DNA of 43,691 nucleotides from Elusimicrobiota bacterium (GTDB lineage Bacteria > Elusimicrobiota > Elusimicrobia > UBA1565): the NCBI GenBank assembly GCA_043819795.1, contig JBDREN010000015.1, forward strand, positions 1-43,691, read 5' to 3'. The position numbers were made by a program, and so were the translations under genes. Positions within the stretch are counted from its first letter, which is position 1. Each line of letters opens with the position of its first letter. A model generated the notes under the pieces. That model worked only from the letters and a program-made list of their open reading frames with translations, was not told where the DNA came from and ran no database searches. This document shows positions 2-43,298 of this stretch, piece by piece.

Positions 2-3000
2 CCGGCAGGGCTTGTCAGCTACTGGGGCTTTGAAGAAGGCTCCGGCGATACGGCCCAGGATTCCTATGATGCGCATCCGGGGACCCTGGTCAACGGCCCC
101 GTGTGGACTCTCGGCCAGGTCGGCGGCGGGCTGAGCTTCGACGGCGACGACTACGTCGAGCTGCCGGACAACGCCTTCGACGGCCATACCAAGGGCACTA
201 TCGAAGCCTGGGTCCATCCGACGCAGTTGCCGGGAGTGGTCTTCGCGCTCGGGAATTCAGGCGCCGCCGCGCCCTACTTCTTCCTCTATTTGCAGGACGG
301 CAGCTCATACGGCGGGCCCAGCCAGGCGTTGGTCTGGGAGTTCTATTGGAGCTCCGGCGACAGGAACTTCGGCTCGACGTCTCTGCCCGTCCCTCTGGAT
401 CAATGGACCCATATCGTCTTTACGGTAGGCGCGAGCGGCCAGAAGGTCTACATCAACGGGCAGGAATCCCAGATGAACCACGGGTCCGGCGGACAGGGGC
501 AGACGCGATGGCTCAGTTCGTTCGCGGCCAACACCAATAAGTACGCTATCGGCACGTTGATGCGGACCTCCCCCCTCTGGAACCCCTTCGTCGGCAAGAT
601 GGACGAGGCGGCGATCTACGACAGGGTCCTGACCCCGGAGGAGGCCGAGCAGCACTACCGCAACGGCGCCCAAGAGAAGGGCTATTGCGGCGTCCCGCCG
701 GTGGTATGCGGCGACGGCTTCGTGTCCCAGGCCGAAGCCTGCGACGACGGCAACACGGCCGACGGGGACGGCTGCTCGGCGGCGTGCGTTGTGGAGGCCG
801 GCTACTCCTGTCCGGGGCTTCCAAGCGCCTGCATAGCGGACGCGGACGGCGACGGGATCGAAGACGCCCTCGACGCCTGCTCCAACACGGACGCTCCCGG
901 GGGGATGGCCGGCTACTGGGGCTTCTCGGAAGGAAGCGGGGCCACGGTCCTGGACACCTACGCCGGAGGCATCGGCACGGTCCACGGCGCGGCATGGACC
1001 ACCGGCCAGGTCGGCAACGCCCTGAGCTTCGACGGCGTGGACGACTACGTCGAGCTCCCGGACAACGCCTTCGACAGCCACACCCAGGGGACGTTCGAGG
1101 CCTGGATCCATCCCACCGAGCTCTATAAGACGATCTTCGCCCTTGGGAATTCGGCCGCGATCGCCCCCTATTTCTATTTCATGGTGAACGACGGCACGGG
1201 CTACGGCGGGGCAAGCGAGGCGCTGGTGTGGTCGTTCTATTGGAGCTCCGGAGACCGGAACTACGGGGCGACCGTATCCCCCATTCCCCTGAACCAATGG
1301 ACCCACCTCGCGTTCTCGGCCGACAGCGGCGGCTACAAGGTCTACATCAACGGTCAAGAGTCCCCCCTCAGCTACGGATCGGGCTCCCAGAGCGAGACCC
1401 GTTGGATCAGCTCCTTCGCGGCCAACACCAACAAGTACGCCATCGGCACCATGATGCGGACCGAGCCCCTCTGGAACCCGTTCAGCGGCCAGATCGACGA
1501 GGTAGCGTTCTACGACAGGCCCCTGACGGCCCAGGAGATCCAGCGGCACTATCAGGACGGCCTGGCCGCCAAGGGCTACTGCGAGCCCATCCTGGACGCG
1601 GACGGCGACGGGGCCCTGGACGCCGTGGACGCCTGCCACAACCCCGACGCCCCCGCGGGATTGGCCCACTACTGGGGCTTCCTCGAGGGCGAGGGGACGG
1701 AGGCGGGCGATTCCATCGGCGCGAGCCCCGGGACCGTCCACGGCGCCGCGTGGAGCACGGGCATCATCAGCGGCGGGCTGAGCTTCCAGGGCGACGCCTA
1801 CGTGAGCGGTCCGCCGCCCGCCTACGTCAACGGCAACAGCTACTCCTACGAGTGGTGGCTCAAGAACCCCGCCAGTTGCGACGCGCTGGGCCGGATCATC
1901 CTGCAGGTCGGCAAGGAGCTGCAGGTCACCAGGACCAACGGCTCGTGCACCGACTTCGGGGTCTACTTCAGCAAGGGCGCGACGGGCGCGACGCTCCACG
2001 GCATCACGACCGGCCTGTCCTACGACGCGCACGCGTGGAACCACATGGCGGTCACCTTCGACGGCGCCGGCAGCGGGACCCTGTCGGTCTACGTCAACGG
2101 GATCCTCGCCGGCACGGACACCACATCGTCCGTCGGATCGAACTACAGCGACTGCGTGACCCAGGCGCCGCGGGAGATGAACATCGGCAGGCGGCATACG
2201 AACTGCCCGGATACGGGCCATCATTTCGACGGCGAGGTCGACGATGTGGCCCTCTACGAGAGAGTCCTCACCCCCGAGGAGATCGCCGCGCATTACGTCA
2301 ACGGCCTGCAGGACAAGGGCTACTGCGAGGAGCTGGTCCCGGTCTGCGGCAACGGGTTCATCGAGGCGCCGGAAGGCTGCGATGACGGCAACACCGCCAA
2401 CGGCGACGGCTGCTCGGACGCCTGCGCCGAGGAGCCCGCGTACTCCTGCGCCGGGATGCCCAGCGTGTGCTTCGCCGACGCGGACGGCGACGGGACCGCC
2501 GACGGCGTCGACTCGTGCGACAACAGGGACGCCCCGCCCGATATGCTGAGCTATTGGGCTTTCGAGGACGGCAGCGGGACGGAGGCCATCGACGCCTTCG
2601 ACGGAAGGCCGGCCACGCTGCACGGCGCCTCGTGGGCCACCGGGCTGGCCGGAGGCGGGCTGAGCTTCGACGGAGACGATTACGTGAGCATCCCGCCGCC
2701 CGCCTACGTCAACGGCAACAGCTACTCCTACGAGGTCTGGCTCAAGAACCCCTCCAATTGCGACGCGGTCGGCAAGACGATCCTGGGAGTGGGCAAGGAG
2801 CTGCATCTCGTCAGGAGCAACGGCTCGTGCACCGACTTCATGCTCTGGTTCAGCAAGGGCGGGACGGGCGCGACGCTCCACGGCATCACGACGGGCCTGT
2901 CCTACGACGCGGACGCCTGGAACCATCTCGCGATCACCTTCGACGGCAGCGGCGGCGGGACCTTGTCCGTGTATGTCAACGGGGCGCTGGCCGGGACGGA

Positions 3001-42200: not shown

Positions 42201-43298
42201 CGGATCAACGCCGCCGGCAACGTCGGCATCGGGACGGCCAGCCCCTCGCAGAAGCTGGACGTGGCCGGGCAGATCCGCGCCTCGGGCGATATCTGCACAG
42301 ACGCCGGCGGGGGGCTCTGCTTGAGCAGCGCCGGCGGCTCCAGCCCGTGGACAGAAGGCTCGGGGCTTGTCTACTACAACGGCGGCAATGTAGGCATCGG
42401 GATCGCGAGCCCCGGCAGGCTGGTCCATATCGACAAGTACCCATCGGGGACCACGATCGGAGACGGCGAGATCCTGCGCGTCGCCGCCGGAGGCCAGAAC
42501 AACGACGTGGCGGAGATCGGCTTCTCCAACGCGACGAGGGGCTCGGCATATATGTCGCCCGCGCTCATCGGCTACCGCACCATCAGCAACGCGAGCTCCC
42601 AGAAAGGCGAGCTCTATTTCGCCACCAGGGACGTAACGACGGAGACCACCCCTCTGCAGAGGATGGTCATCACGACCGATGGAAAGGTCGGCATCGGGAC
42701 GACGGATCCCTTGGCTATGCTGAACGTATACAGTGCCGCCGCCAATACTCCTATCTTGAGATTGCAGACCCCGGGCTTGATGGTCCTAAAGATCATCCCA
42801 GTAGACACGGCGACCGGCGGGCAACTGCTGCATCAGTTCAAGATGTCATCGAGCGAGGGATTGCATTTCATCACAAACGAAACGAAGAGCACTCTCGCGA
42901 TGAACGACGGCAACGTCGGCATAGGGACCATAACGCCGGCGTACAAGCTGGACGTGGCCGGCTCGGCGCACGCCTCGAGCTTCCCCACCTCCTCGGACCG
43001 GAGGTTCAAGACGAACGTCCAGCCCCTCGAGAACGTGCTGGATAAGGTGAAGCGGATGCAGGGCGTCTCCTTCGAATGGAACGAGACCTACGAGAAGCTG
43101 GGCCGGTCCACCGGCCGCCGGGAGATCGGCGTGATCGCGCAGGATGTGGAGGATATCTTCCCGCAGCTGGTCTCCAAATGGGGAGAGGGCGAGTACCGCG
43201 CAGTGGACTACGGCAGGCTCGCCGTGGTCCTCATCGAGGCCATCAAGGAGCAGCAGAAGCAGATCGAGGAGCTCAAAGCCAGGCTGACGCCGCAGTAA
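39246..43298 (+). CDS. Secreted tail-fibre-like trimeric protein with 16 GxVGIGT repeats and C-terminal Peptidase S74 intramolecular chaperone (1,350 aa)
   Basis: Signal peptide ending VHA-A, then N-terminal domain VPSAMNFQGRL...G...MTFRIY...LW.E...GVFSV.LG...YLEIEV......PR..L...PYA. Repeated G(N/K/S)VGIGT..P motifs; C-terminal SDRRFKTN...IGVIAQDVE..FP.LV...VDY..L...LIEAIKEQQKQIEELK. Confidence 0.93.
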   Translation: MTRCMRAFLRTACVFAAAAFILEGTRVHAADVPSAMNFQGRLLSEGQPVTGTRDMTFRIYGTSSGSDVLWTETQTGISVDAGVFSVQLGAVGPLPSTIFAGDLYLEIEVGAKTFSPRERLVTSPYAFNAQRLQGKDLSDFVIADSLGNVGIGTSSPDSKLSVDVAGDNIGYGWKVGADTYAGASIWSSNSPNRRLHFSAYDGFDFGVGANNQGEAASAVRIGAQGYVGIGTTSPAYDLDVAGSVNASGYWVNGQPLGGGGSLWTESGSNVYRDSGNVGVGTTSPTQKLHVMGNITLGTAGGTAQYWVGTEGYNHTFGGNSGAIGMMLNQASGSGDIRFMTHHNGVSNSVRMVIDIDGKVGIGTTSPSEALHVAGTVKASAFDLNGTPITSWPSGGSSPWSEGSGNVYRTGGRLGLGTASPSSDIHILRTNTSINVSLAADTGNAGQGSFIRFGAGGTNTYKGKIGQVREGSYGIGRLAFFTSPDSSGSEDNTIERMSIKSNGNVGIGTTSPQYLLEINAAKPQAESALKITSGHSATGSVLTIKSNGGSTNVMDILGSGNVGLGTTDPSSKLDVAGTVKATAFDLNGSEITSWPSGGGGGLWTASGSNIYRTGGSVGIGTASPQYLLEINAAKPDTESALKLTSGHSATGSVMSIKSAGGSTNVMEILGSGNVGIGTTNPTEKLHIQGDIAKIAVQSTHGTGSAAISAIEFYDSAGTLKAWLGDGSDTNEDLYIRSYSGAIHFGDGAGWSGLNLTNGNAGIGTTSPTEKLDVVGTVKATAFVGDGSGLTGVAGGSPWTENSGNVYRTSGGVGIGTSSPDAALSVVAGGGTSANPVLTVKGTSGSGYISITGNGAGTAAALLSAAHGQSWRWGLGAQNGTSHMEFYDATQGKMRMLLRNDGNVGIGTESPEARLEVYSDAAASATGQEVLRVSAENDGGIAGSGPYLTFDNGVGDILTGKIGNISEGSGKVALSFHTYDNGLSETMRINAAGNVGIGTASPSQKLDVAGQIRASGDICTDAGGGLCLSSAGGSSPWTEGSGLVYYNGGNVGIGIASPGRLVHIDKYPSGTTIGDGEILRVAAGGQNNDVAEIGFSNATRGSAYMSPALIGYRTISNASSQKGELYFATRDVTTETTPLQRMVITTDGKVGIGTTDPLAMLNVYSAAANTPILRLQTPGLMVLKIIPVDTATGGQLLHQFKMSSSEGLHFITNETKSTLAMNDGNVGIGTITPAYKLDVAGSAHASSFPTSSDRRFKTNVQPLENVLDKVKRMQGVSFEWNETYEKLGRSTGRREIGVIAQDVEDIFPQLVSKWGEGEYRAVDYGRLAVVLIEAIKEQQKQIEELKARLTPQ
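42993..43298 (+). other. Peptidase S74 (endosialidase chaperone) domain with an intact S-D-x-R-x-K autocleavage motif and terminal coiled coil
   Basis: Ser codon tcg 42993-42995 (residue 1250) begins SDRRFK; the domain ends in the heptad stretch LIEAIKEQQKQIEELKARL. Confidence 0.9.

Follow-up and report, generated by a model that had tools for sequence, protein, structure and literature searches.

Among the closest described counterparts of the locus presented here are the Rhs/YD polymorphic toxins and teneurin-like proteins, and the available sections of PMC13018210, in which the term "TIP" insertion is used for teneurin-like toxins, describe Rhs/teneurin-like toxins as having no obvious delivery machinery. 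The word rhodanese is absent from PMC6425310, PMC13018210 and PMC3482391, and the available sections of these three papers mention no partner gene of the type found here (carrying the domain designated g3N below) with Rhs/YD toxins. Single components of the locus have counterparts elsewhere. The mosaic adhesive trimer (MAT) fibres of Bdellovibrio bacteriovorus are, according to the available part of PMC10769870, trimeric, beta-helical surface proteins that bind prey glycans; a beta-rich domain, conserved and about 130 aa long, directly follows their signal peptide, and one subgroup carries at the C-terminus an S74 chaperone with the motif S-D-x-x-x-K. The periplasmic PspE is an active rhodanese able to support disulfide formation (available sections of PMC2593051 and of PMC5403849, the latter citing Chng 2012).

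The window, i.e. the whole stretch of DNA analysed, is the complete 43,691-nt contig JBDREN010000015.1 of an Elusimicrobiota genome (assembly 90% complete). The ORF listing of the window contains plus-strand frames at 2..30040, 30899..39106 and 39246..43298, and four genes in the same orientation are encoded. Gene 2 runs from ATG 30052, leaving a gap of 11 nt after gene 1, to 30981; gene 3 opens at GTG 30974 (8-nt overlap with gene 2) or at ATG 30953 (29-nt overlap), and 139 nt (39107-39245) lie between genes 3 and 4. A preliminary description of this DNA had reported the same orientation and spacing, which are borne out (the 8 nt apply to the GTG start), as are the signal peptides of genes 2-4, judged by eye on the translations. 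It had also regarded gene 1 as built of extracellular domains and gene 3 as the only bearer of a sorting domain; in agreement with this, LamG, F5/8 type C, TSP3 and Ig-like families were matched in gene 1, while profile scans of the four window proteins found a Por_Secre_tail in gene 3 and no sorting tail in genes 1, 2 and 4.

Gene 1 (2..30040, plus strand) encodes a giant secreted protein of at least 10,012 aa, the frame of which is open at the 5' contig edge, i.e. the contig begins mid-gene and the window holds no start codon. Contig C69 of this genome ends in the same 82 nt with which the window opens, and an in-frame ORF there begins with a signal-peptide-like sequence; the complete gene therefore probably starts on C69 and encodes a Sec-exported protein of about 10,360 aa. 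LamG, TSP3, discoidin and Ig-like arrays are followed by a core and a Cys-rich end, and the Pfam content comprises Laminin_G_3 (12 matched stretches), F5/8 type C, TSP3, Big_13, Big_7, fn3 and CarboxypepD_reg. The discoidin (F5/8 type C) array (5048..15550, plus strand) consists, by Pfam and motif count, of 15 units (unit starts at residues 1683 to 5046) linked by TSP3 calcium-binding repeats. The conserved 815-aa core, designated g1core (26690..29134, plus strand), is made up of beta-sandwich domains (HYDIN-like Ig, CarboxypepD_reg/TTR-like and CARDB-like) and recurs in the paralogues on contigs C160, C38 and C2; giants from other phyla also have it and run on into RHS repeats. The C-terminal 301 aa (29135..30037, plus strand; Gly-rich linker, Cys-rich segment and end domain) occupy the position of the RHS shell and toxin of the paralogues, and the sole relative found for them is the C160 paralogue (42.5% identity).

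The paralogues on C2 and C38 and the homologues from other phyla, with their beta-sandwich arrays, CarboxypepD_reg/TTR-like domain, DUF6531, RHS repeats, RHS core and variable end, have the architecture of Rhs/YD polymorphic toxins and teneurin-like proteins, as given in the available sections of PMC6425310, PMC13018210 and PMC3482391. RHS repeats (PF05593) were matched in 8 and 13 stretches of the C2 and C38 paralogues, respectively, whereas Pfam scans of gene 1 detected neither a YD/RHS repeat (PF05593) nor an RHS core (PF03527). The pre-shell region (the TTR-like domain and the next sandwich) is nevertheless present in gene 1, as its core aligns with RHS-bearing giants of its own genome and of other phyla and CarboxypepD_reg is matched. 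In most relatives a Rhs/YD toxin shell comes after this same core, where gene 1 has its Cys-rich end, directly followed by the rhodanese gene. Rhs/YD toxin shells appear to be what this family basically mounts, and the window carries a variant with lectins and no shell. In a Foldseek search with a core fragment teneurins appeared at ranks 8, 9 and 12-14 (TM about 0.3), and the core profile matched no teneurin-like chain in the PDB.

Gene 3 (30953..39106, alternative start 30974, plus strand) encodes a partner protein of 2,717 aa, in which a signal peptide, g3N, fn3/Big_13/PKD arrays, a beta-helix region and the sorting tail follow one another (Pfam: PKD x5, fn3, Big_13 and Por_Secre_tail). Its Sec signal peptide, again recognized by eye, comprises a basic stretch, a hydrophobic stretch and A-S-A ahead of Q-G-A-G-C. 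The conserved, unnamed N-terminal module g3N (31049..32329, plus strand; 427 aa) consists of tandem beta-sandwiches and is the predicted socket for a gene 1 peptide; a conserved Cys (nt 31055-31057) lies 3-4 residues ahead of its first strand. There was no match to g3N in Pfam, NCBIfam or the PDB. Its family comprises 3,275 cluster representatives; among the best 150 of these, 146 have the domain starting no later than about residue 110.

The tail of gene 3 (38819..39103, plus strand) is a type A-like T9SS sorting domain, scoring 27.1 bits (cut-off 23; nt 38819-39055) against the family model (TIGR04183/PF18962) and a borderline 22.3 bits in a whole-protein hmmscan. In this, gene 3 resembles T9SS cargo with outer-membrane partners (SprB/SprF, PorV/PorP type), and the likeness extends to the genome, which holds 33 sorting-tail matches and six PorV-like genes over the cut-off, five of them directly after tail-bearing genes. 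It differs from such cargo in its Elusimicrobiota lineage and in the tail-less giant, which here would ride on, or hang from, the tagged partner. Of the T9SS core genes, some of which the preliminary description had named as worth a search, PorV-like ones are thus present, SprA is represented by three collinear sub-threshold matches in one 1,889-aa frame, and PorU was not found in the 90% complete genome apart from tail-like fragments; searches for GldL and GldM gave no match and were uninformative, as the control searches were silent too. Gene 3 would leave the cell by a T9SS-like route. No T9SS is known from the Geobacter-type and Myxococcota carriers of g3N, and therefore the general role of this domain cannot depend on it.

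Gene 2 (30052..30981, plus strand; 309 aa) encodes an exported tandem rhodanese (PF00581, two domains, 118.3 bits). In domain 1 the catalytic Cys lies in a C-x4-C loop (Y-C-W-G-V-G-C, about nt 30349-30372), and in domain 2 an Asp stands at the catalytic position. Domain 1 thus resembles Escherichia coli PspE, which is likewise exported, has the rhodanese fold and bears a cysteine in its active site (available sections of PMC2593051 and PMC5403849); unlike the single-domain PspE, gene 2 is tandem, has the C-x4-C loop and a dead second domain, and is tied to a giant-protein module. A further difference concerns its homologues in Desulfuromonadota and Nitrospirota, which have one rhodanese domain with Asp replacing the catalytic Cys and are catalytically dead.

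A comparison with other genomes revealed that genes 1-3 are a real conserved module across many bacterial phyla. Within the same genome there are at least five copies, and tblastn located the core on C160 (56%), C38 (43%) and C2 (32%), g3N on C160, C38, C118 and C2, and the rhodanese on C38, C2 and C118. All paralogous copies keep the order core, (rhodanese), g3N, with the genes on a single strand, and some copies are in tandem, since the end of C160 continues into C38. As the C160 copy has no rhodanese, this protein is dispensable at least there. Among 40 close relatives, g3N was strongly matched in four and weakly in one more; a rhodanese gene lies directly upstream of g3N in all three with DNA upstream of it, and an RHS protein is encoded upstream in two. 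A wider survey covered 70 related loci from a genome collection. In testable Elusimicrobiota loci the rhodanese gene was directly upstream of g3N in 20/20 cases and a core or RHS upstream in 7/7; in Desulfuromonadota a core or RHS was upstream in 8/9 and the rhodanese downstream in 6/9, and a core-like stretch preceded g3N in 6/6 Planctomycetota loci. The core/g3N pairing also occurs in Myxococcota and in a Thiohalocapsa genome. Fusion of core and g3N is called from two loci with ORFs read, one of Planctomycetota (L085) and one of Verrucomicrobiota (L090), each with a single open frame of ~7,000 aa, and one database protein repeats the late core with g3N twice. The module is patchy, being carried by 15 of 301 sampled Elusimicrobiota genomes. 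The co-occurrence and synteny search that the preliminary description had called for thus upholds its view that genes 1, 2 and 3 belong together, on the strength of synteny, both among the paralogues within the genome and in other phyla, and of the fused forms, but not the inclusion of the S74 fibre, which is treated below.

A contact between the core of gene 1 and g3N was predicted with scores of 0.73, 0.75 and 0.73, compared with 0.00 for the best of three controls. Of 157 solved complexes, 116 attain a mark of 0.73, as do 2 of 215 mismatched pairs; these are rough counts only, since the alignments used here were custom-made. The runs had at least 83% of contacts in common, with a partner pLDDT of at least 81. 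The model pairs core residues 678-709 (28721..28816, plus strand; 32 residues) with the first strands of g3N (g3N residues 1-32). This predicted docking peptide comprises the most conserved 32 residues of g1core (invariant V686, D693 and Y695; nearly invariant W684, T705, V707 and P708), and E18, R19 and F22 are invariant on the g3N side of the predicted interface. In an AF2 model of the core fragment alone, residues 681-686 and 688-704, located between two confident sandwiches, have a pLDDT of <50. The search for a similar solved complex found none. The complex model supports binding of gene 1 to gene 3 but does not show it; it may have learnt the contact from the fused homologues, in which case the contact would be a real intramolecular one and no proof for the split pair. 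The earlier suggestion that gene 3 anchors gene 1 is plausible in the light of these scores and of the sole sorting tail. In the way it works, the pair recalls the cohesin-dockerin system of cellulosomes, as an anchorless protein would hang on an anchored scaffold through a plug and socket encoded by neighbouring genes. There is no relation to that system in sequence or fold, Pfam scans of the four window proteins matched neither cohesin (PF00963) nor dockerin (PF00404), and the plug here is a peptide, disordered alone, whose predicted role is to supply extra strands to a beta-sandwich.

The preliminary description had gone further and joined all four genes, the S74 fibre included, into one surface recognition apparatus. 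Gene 4 (39246..43298, plus strand; 1,350 aa) encodes a MAT-like fibre in which signal peptide and N-domain lead into repeated fibre units and, at the C-terminus, an S74 chaperone (Peptidase_S74, PF13884, 69.4 bits, nt 42993-43172; S-D-x-x-x-K motif as S-D-R-R-F-K). It shares with the MAT fibres, as the available part of PMC10769870 presents them, the signal peptide, the long repetitive fibre, the chaperone with its motif and a weak match of the N-domain (residues 26-90) to Bdello_MAT_N (NF053851; 38.5 bits, below the cut-off of 60), but it comes from Elusimicrobiota and has no separate tip domain before the chaperone. A shared apparatus could be read from the MAT-like fibre genes on both flanks of the module, namely a pair on C69 that shortly precedes the probable gene 1 start and gene 4 behind gene 3, and from the fibre-like genes that come after gene-3-type ends on C96 and C235. 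We know of no predatory habit of this organism. The N-domain of gene 4 is common to other fibre genes of the genome. What holds the MAT N-domain at the surface is likewise unknown in Bdellovibrio, according to the available part of PMC10769870. Against a common apparatus, neither gene 4 nor its N-domain was matched within 10 kb in any of the 70 related loci, S74 was found nowhere in the genomes of four module-carrying relatives, and of the genome's 17 gene-3-type ends, 16 of them with space of 3 kb or more behind them, just 3 lead on to a fibre gene. Genes 3 and 4 are also separated by a 10-bp G+C-rich hairpin, terminator-like with a weak T tail (39196..39219, plus strand), and just past the gene 4 stop there is a remnant of a gene-3-type sorting tail, namely of its 3' end (43319..43375, plus strand; 78-88% identity to gene-3 paralogue ends), a hint at insertion of the fibre gene at this locus. 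We therefore regard membership of gene 4 in the apparatus as improbable; it is likely a separate MAT-like fibre gene and only a neighbour, placed beside the module in this genome alone.

For genes 1-3 themselves, independent giant surface proteins forming no complex might have been brought together through recombining islands of such genes: the genome has 33 frames of at least 2,500 aa (some of them opposite-strand shadows of others), amounting to ~9% of its bases, its contigs end at repeats common to several contigs, and the domain arrays of homologues vary widely. This explanation appears unlikely, if slightly less so than the four-gene apparatus, because the order of core, rhodanese and g3N recurs in distant phyla with otherwise unrelated arrays, some lineages have core and g3N in one protein, the complex score contrasts with the null controls, and the predicted interface coincides with that stretch of the core which is best conserved and is disordered alone. 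A more specific proposal, to which we give as little credence as to the four-gene apparatus, assigns the rhodanese to the giant's toxin end, as its enzyme or its immunity factor (e.g. a periplasmic detoxifier or antitoxin), and not to assembly as a subunit. It would fit C2 and C38, where the rhodanese gene directly follows the Rhs toxin end with no small gene in between, the catalytic Cys retained in nearly all Elusimicrobiota copies of the module, and the PspE precedent. However, the rhodanese is similar across loci with differing toxin ends and also occurs where there is no shell, as in the window, relatives have a separate small ORF between toxin and rhodanese, and in Desulfuromonadota and Nitrospirota the rhodanese comes after the g3N gene. 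Because the homologues in these two phyla have no catalytic Cys, the role shared by module rhodaneses is likely structural, judging from sequence comparison; of the helper role proposed earlier for gene 2, its place beside genes 1 and 3 stands by synteny, and redox or folding activity as a common role is doubtful. We infer that the rhodanese-fold protein works in the periplasm as a subunit for assembly or chaperoning and is not primarily a sulfur-transfer enzyme.

On balance we lean, with modest confidence, towards reading genes 1-3 as a single copy of a conserved envelope module made up of three genes; the predicted docking site for the giant's short core peptide is g3N. As only gene 3 has a sorting tail, its product would hold the tail-less giant on the cell surface and would perhaps escort it out of the cell. 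The window's copy would display a multivalent lectin array (LamG and 15 discoidin units) where relatives have a toxin shell. More tentatively, and with the odds somewhat against it, the core peptide, the g3N socket and the rhodanese-fold protein may constitute a widespread, unnamed envelope system that mounts T6SS-independent Rhs/teneurin-like toxin shells, or here a 10,000-residue lectin array, on a secreted stalk, with the rhodanese as a periplasmic assembly factor that possibly locks the pair via the conserved N-terminal Cys of g3N. If this is true, the module would be the display and delivery machinery that Rhs/teneurin-like toxins are said to lack.

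The window carries four genes on the forward strand: gene 1 (2..30040; 10,012 codons with an open 5' end), gene 2 (30052..30981; ATG at 30052, after an 11-nt gap), gene 3 (30953..39106; ATG at 30953, overlapping gene 2 by 29 nt, or GTG at 30974, overlapping it by 8 nt) and gene 4 (39246..43298; 139 nt beyond gene 3). Inspection of the forward-strand frames confirmed the co-orientation and the spacings (with the GTG start) given in the preliminary description, and Pfam and NCBIfam searches bore out its domain assignments. These are: (i) Laminin_G_3, TSP3, F5/8 type C, Ig-like, fn3 and CarboxypepD_reg domains in gene 1, including 15 discoidin units by motif count, (ii) two rhodanese domains in gene 2, (iii) fn3, Big_13, five PKD domains and a T9SS type A-like sorting tail in gene 3, and (iv) Peptidase_S74 in gene 4. 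The tail (22.3 bits in one scan and 27.1 bits in another, with a cut-off of 23) was, as described, found among the four genes in gene 3 only, and signal peptides were again recognized by eye in the sequences of genes 2-4.

The window corresponds to the entire contig C15. Over 82 nt its start has the same sequence as the end of contig C69, and this overlap is the sole basis for joining the two. On C69 (24095-25258 region), some 1.1 kb short of the contig end, an ORF opens with what resembles a signal peptide and runs in frame into gene 1; judging from the overlap and this ORF, the complete gene 1 probably encodes a Sec-exported protein of about 10,360 aa. At the opposite end, positions 43548-43690 match C12 positions 156-298 in the opposite orientation, at 99.3% across 143 nt, and C12 is probably the next contig. 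The genome (4.99 Mb in 241 contigs, 90% complete) contains 33 open frames of at least 2,500 aa, some of them opposite-strand shadows of each other, which sum to about 9% of its bases; the longest, of 12,270 aa, is located on C218.

A search for paralogues was performed by tblastn with three queries: the conserved 815-aa part of gene 1 (the core; nt 26690-29134, forward strand), the rhodanese and the conserved 427-aa N-terminal domain of gene 3 (g3N; nt 31049-32329, forward strand). This analysis revealed that the three recur in the same order and on the same strand on other contigs of this genome, namely C160 (core 56%, g3N 62%, without the rhodanese), C38 (core 43%, g3N 54%, rhodanese 39%), C2 (core 32%, g3N 46% over a truncated piece, rhodanese 34%) and C118 (rhodanese 33%, g3N 44%, the upstream DNA lying beyond the contig end), and that a g3N gene is located downstream of every core found in the genome. 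The low end of C160 (L006, C160:1-5663, minus strand) holds the start of another giant, downstream of the C160 module, and this giant goes on with the same residues at the end of C38 (L011); two modules at least are thus arranged in tandem, with the assembly broken within repeats. In the C118 locus (L012, C118:1083-9108) the reading frame of the g3N protein changes around 6325-6626 with no change in the types of domain encoded, so that either the gene carries a frameshift or the assembly is at fault.

Past the core, the C2 giant contains DUF6531, 8 matched RHS repeats, an RHS core match and an end domain of its own, and the C38 giant 13 matched RHS repeats and a different end domain, DUF6531 and the RHS core match being present on C2 only. 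The same domain scan found no RHS repeats in gene 1 of the window or in the C160 giant; these two share an end of about 300 aa (42.5% identity), composed of a Gly-rich linker and many cysteines. Beyond C160, the search for relatives of this C-terminal domain gave no usable match in the ESM Atlas and none among longer proteins at E-values up to 0.01, and the idea that it is a recognizable toxin domain was dropped. On C2 (L008, C2:528-1301 and 1264-7998) and C38 (L010, C38:4098-4905) the rhodanese gene directly follows the Rhs-type toxin end, with no small immunity-like ORF in between; such an ORF is present in two relatives (L024 and L036).

Strong g3N matches were found in 4 of 40 relatives, plus one weak match. 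Where upstream DNA was available, a rhodanese gene preceded g3N in 3 of 3 and an RHS-repeat protein was encoded further upstream in 2 of 3, and in one relative a PorV-like gene followed the g3N protein. Of 301 Elusimicrobiota genomes sampled, 15 (12 of 98 genera) carry g3N, with five copies in the genome studied here and one or two in the other carriers. Scanning a single genome for each species gave 70 g3N loci, including three isolates, which span Elusimicrobiota, Nitrospirota, Desulfuromonadota, other Desulfobacterota, Myxococcota, Planctomycetota and Verrucomicrobiota, together with one Armatimonadota MAG and one Thiohalocapsa genome.

Synteny was counted from same-strand tblastn matches around these 70 loci. 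Within Elusimicrobiota, a core or RHS match was present upstream at all 7 loci with 6 kb of upstream DNA, and the rhodanese directly upstream at all 20 with 900 nt. In Desulfuromonadota the corresponding core/RHS count was 8/9, with a weaker rhodanese match about 3.5 kb downstream at 6/9, and the single loci of Myxococcota and Thiohalocapsa each had core/RHS upstream and no detectable rhodanese. Planctomycetota loci showed a core-like stretch directly upstream in 6/6 cases, without rhodanese. Fewer core matches were obtained with this query in Nitrospirota (1/5) and other Desulfobacterota (2/6), which may reflect divergence or real absence. The order in Geothermobacter is a core-DUF6531-RHS giant, small ORFs, the g3N protein, the rhodanese and another sandwich-array protein; at a Geobacter locus (L051:5108-6508), genes for an RVT_1 reverse transcriptase and a PD-(D/E)XK nuclease separate the RHS giant from the g3N gene.

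ORFs were examined for two fused-type loci, L085 (Planctomycetota) and L090 (Verrucomicrobiota), and in each of them one continuous frame of about 7,000 aa encodes both core and g3N. Two database proteins, P0110 (3,746 aa) and P0104 (7,485 aa), carry the unit of late core and g3N twice or more in one chain, so that the pair is also used as a building block within giants. Elusimicrobiota g3N proteins often bear NHL or teneurin-NHL propellers (P0008, P0010, P0014, P0019 and others; L027:1901-8560), with the YD shell encoded by the preceding gene. Parts that teneurin-like proteins hold in one chain are here divided between two adjoining genes.

No Pfam or NCBIfam model matches g3N. A g3N profile searched against 1.84 billion cluster representatives identified 3,275 at E-values up to 0.001 and 2,202 at up to 1e-30; their source names are hypothetical or derive from their other domains. 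Among the best 150 representatives, g3N starts within the first ~110 residues in 146 and is internal in 4. The AF2 model (pLDDT 89.8) consists of tandem beta-sandwiches, for which Foldseek returned generic Ig-like tandem matches only (TM at most 0.21), and the profile had no match among PDB sequences at E-values up to 1. By these sequence comparisons, g3N is a large domain family without a name.

A complex of core residues 311-829 with g3N was predicted using an author-built alignment for each. The scores were 0.73, 0.75 and 0.73, and the best of three controls gave 0.00; as a rough benchmark only, given the author-built alignments, 116 of 157 solved complexes score as high, against 2 of 215 mismatched pairs. 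At least 83% of contacts were common to the runs, with a partner pLDDT of at least 81. In the predicted interface, which covers g3N residues 1-32, core residues 678-709 run antiparallel to g3N residues 22-29. Invariant or nearly invariant core columns (W684, V686, D693, Y695, T705, V707 and P708) fall inside this interface, as do the invariant g3N residues E18, R19 and F22 of its strands. When AF2 modelled the core fragment by itself (pLDDT 85.3), the CarboxypepD_reg-like and CARDB-like sandwiches on either side of this stretch came out as confident, and pLDDT dropped below 50 at fragment positions 116-121 and 123-139 (core residues 681-686 and 688-704). The best conserved stretch is therefore disordered alone and ordered against its partner, as would be expected of a docking peptide. 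Taken together, the prediction supports binding of the gene 1 core to the g3N of gene 3. In fused homologues the same contact is plausible within one chain, and these homologues may be the source from which the complex model learnt it. Searched against PDB, the core profile gave generic CarboxypepD_reg-like matches only (NOMO, pilins) and no teneurin-like chain, so that an equivalence between the published 'TIP' insertion and the docking peptide is not supported; Foldseek matches of the core fragment to pilins and teneurins (TM about 0.3) were not decisive.

Gene 2 combines the signal peptide seen by eye with two domains, of which the first has its catalytic Cys in a C-x4-C loop and the second an Asp at that place. 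Its Elusimicrobiota homologues show the same Cys/Asp pattern almost without exception, and in the downstream homologues of Desulfuromonadota and Nitrospirota an Asp occupies the catalytic place of the only rhodanese domain. Because of this replacement, sulfur transfer is unlikely to be the function common to all phyla, and we infer a binding or assembly role for the rhodanese-fold protein. In Elusimicrobiota the rhodanese cysteines may contribute a redox reaction as well; disulfide formation aided by a rhodanese has a precedent in periplasmic PspE (PMC5403849, citing Chng 2012). A conserved Cys lies 3-4 residues before the first g3N strand in all split forms compared; it is missing from the Planctomycetota-type fusions and kept in three other internal copies. 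The number of cysteines at the core end varies from 0 to 5, also in lineages with a dead rhodanese, and a core-g3N disulfide lock is a lead only. A lipoprotein function of the g3N Cys was rejected in view of the charged residues before it and an A-x-A type cleavage site upstream.

As regards export, 33 sorting-tail matches were found in the genome, 29 of them above the cut-off. Of the type IX secretion genes looked for, six PorV-like genes were present, five directly after tail-bearing genes (C221, C141, C138, C228 and C182), in an arrangement that resembles SprB/SprF-type cargo-partner pairs, here in Elusimicrobiota. A SprA-like frame of 1,889 aa scored below its cut-off and PorU was not found in this 90% complete genome, while the searches for GldL and GldM, silent together with their controls, are no evidence of absence. 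A T9SS-like route is plausible for gene 3, going by these gene complements; as a general route for g3N proteins it is ruled out for lineages not known to have T9SS.

Gene 4 shows features that PMC10769870 gives for MAT-type fibres, namely a signal peptide and an S74 domain with the S-D-x-x-x-K motif, and its N-domain matches Bdello_MAT_N weakly (38.5 bits, cut-off 60). The preliminary description had counted this fibre into one surface apparatus of four genes, with gene 3 as anchor and gene 2 as helper. Genes 1-3 are upheld by their recurring synteny, the core, g3N and rhodanese being linked across phyla. The fibre is not: no gene 4 match lies within 10 kb at any of the 70 related loci, S74 occurs nowhere in the genomes of four module-carrying relatives, and only 3 of the 17 gene-3-type ends in this genome have a fibre gene behind them. 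On these counts gene 4 appears to be outside the module. A 57-nt relic of a sorting-tail end directly after gene 4 would fit an insertion of the fibre gene at this site. The 139-nt gap before it contains a 10-bp G+C-rich hairpin, which alone stands out, the fold of 39107-39245 as a whole being not unusual (z-score -0.63). Among sequencing runs, none of RNA was listed as containing this sequence; the one run listed is of DNA and has 0.12 of the words. A looser, genome-specific association of fibre genes with the module may nevertheless exist, as two MAT-like fibre genes (19541-20956 and 20957-24073, the latter with S74) lie directly upstream on C69 and fibre genes thus flank the module on both sides. 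The earlier interpretation as a whole is therefore partly supported, and the observation underlying it stands.

The best explanation of these data is that genes 1-3 form a three-gene module with the giant docked on a tail-bearing partner. The giant would be Sec-exported and tail-less, a peptide of its core would plug into g3N of the partner, the partner (gene 3) would anchor or escort the giant, and the rhodanese-fold protein would assist; binding, anchoring and the rhodanese role are all predicted or inferred. Most relatives carry an Rhs/YD toxin shell as cargo beyond the core. LamG and discoidin folds are often involved in glycan binding, and the very large LamG and discoidin array before the core of the window copy, with a Cys-rich end in place of the shell, suggests putative multivalent glycan binding rather than toxin delivery.

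Rhs/YD and teneurin-like toxins that work without a type VI system are common. That giant adhesins and Rhs-type proteins are displayed on the surface is known; this docking pair with its accessory protein is undescribed. Within the literature searched, the core-g3N-rhodanese partnership is not in print: rhodanese came up together with RHS repeat and polymorphic toxin in one paper and, among the papers listed, with YD-repeat and Rhs in one pan-genome study, in both by single mentions, the word rhodanese is absent from the 2012 polymorphic-toxin survey and the 2026 teneurin-like study (PMC13018210), and nothing relevant was found for Elusimicrobia with type IX secretion.

The same 2026 structural study (PMC13018210) notes that delivery machinery for Rhs/YD and teneurin-like toxins is not evident, and the conserved partner gene with its predicted plug-and-socket contact offers a concrete, testable handle on this question; Geothermobacter hydrogeniphilus, Geotalea toluenoxydans and Cystobacter fuscus are cultivable carriers. 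The module further brings to light a large domain family without a name, speaks for a non-catalytic role of the rhodanese fold and suggests how giants without a sorting tail reach or remain on the diderm surface, and the window copy indicates that the same mount may bear a lectin array instead of a toxin shell.
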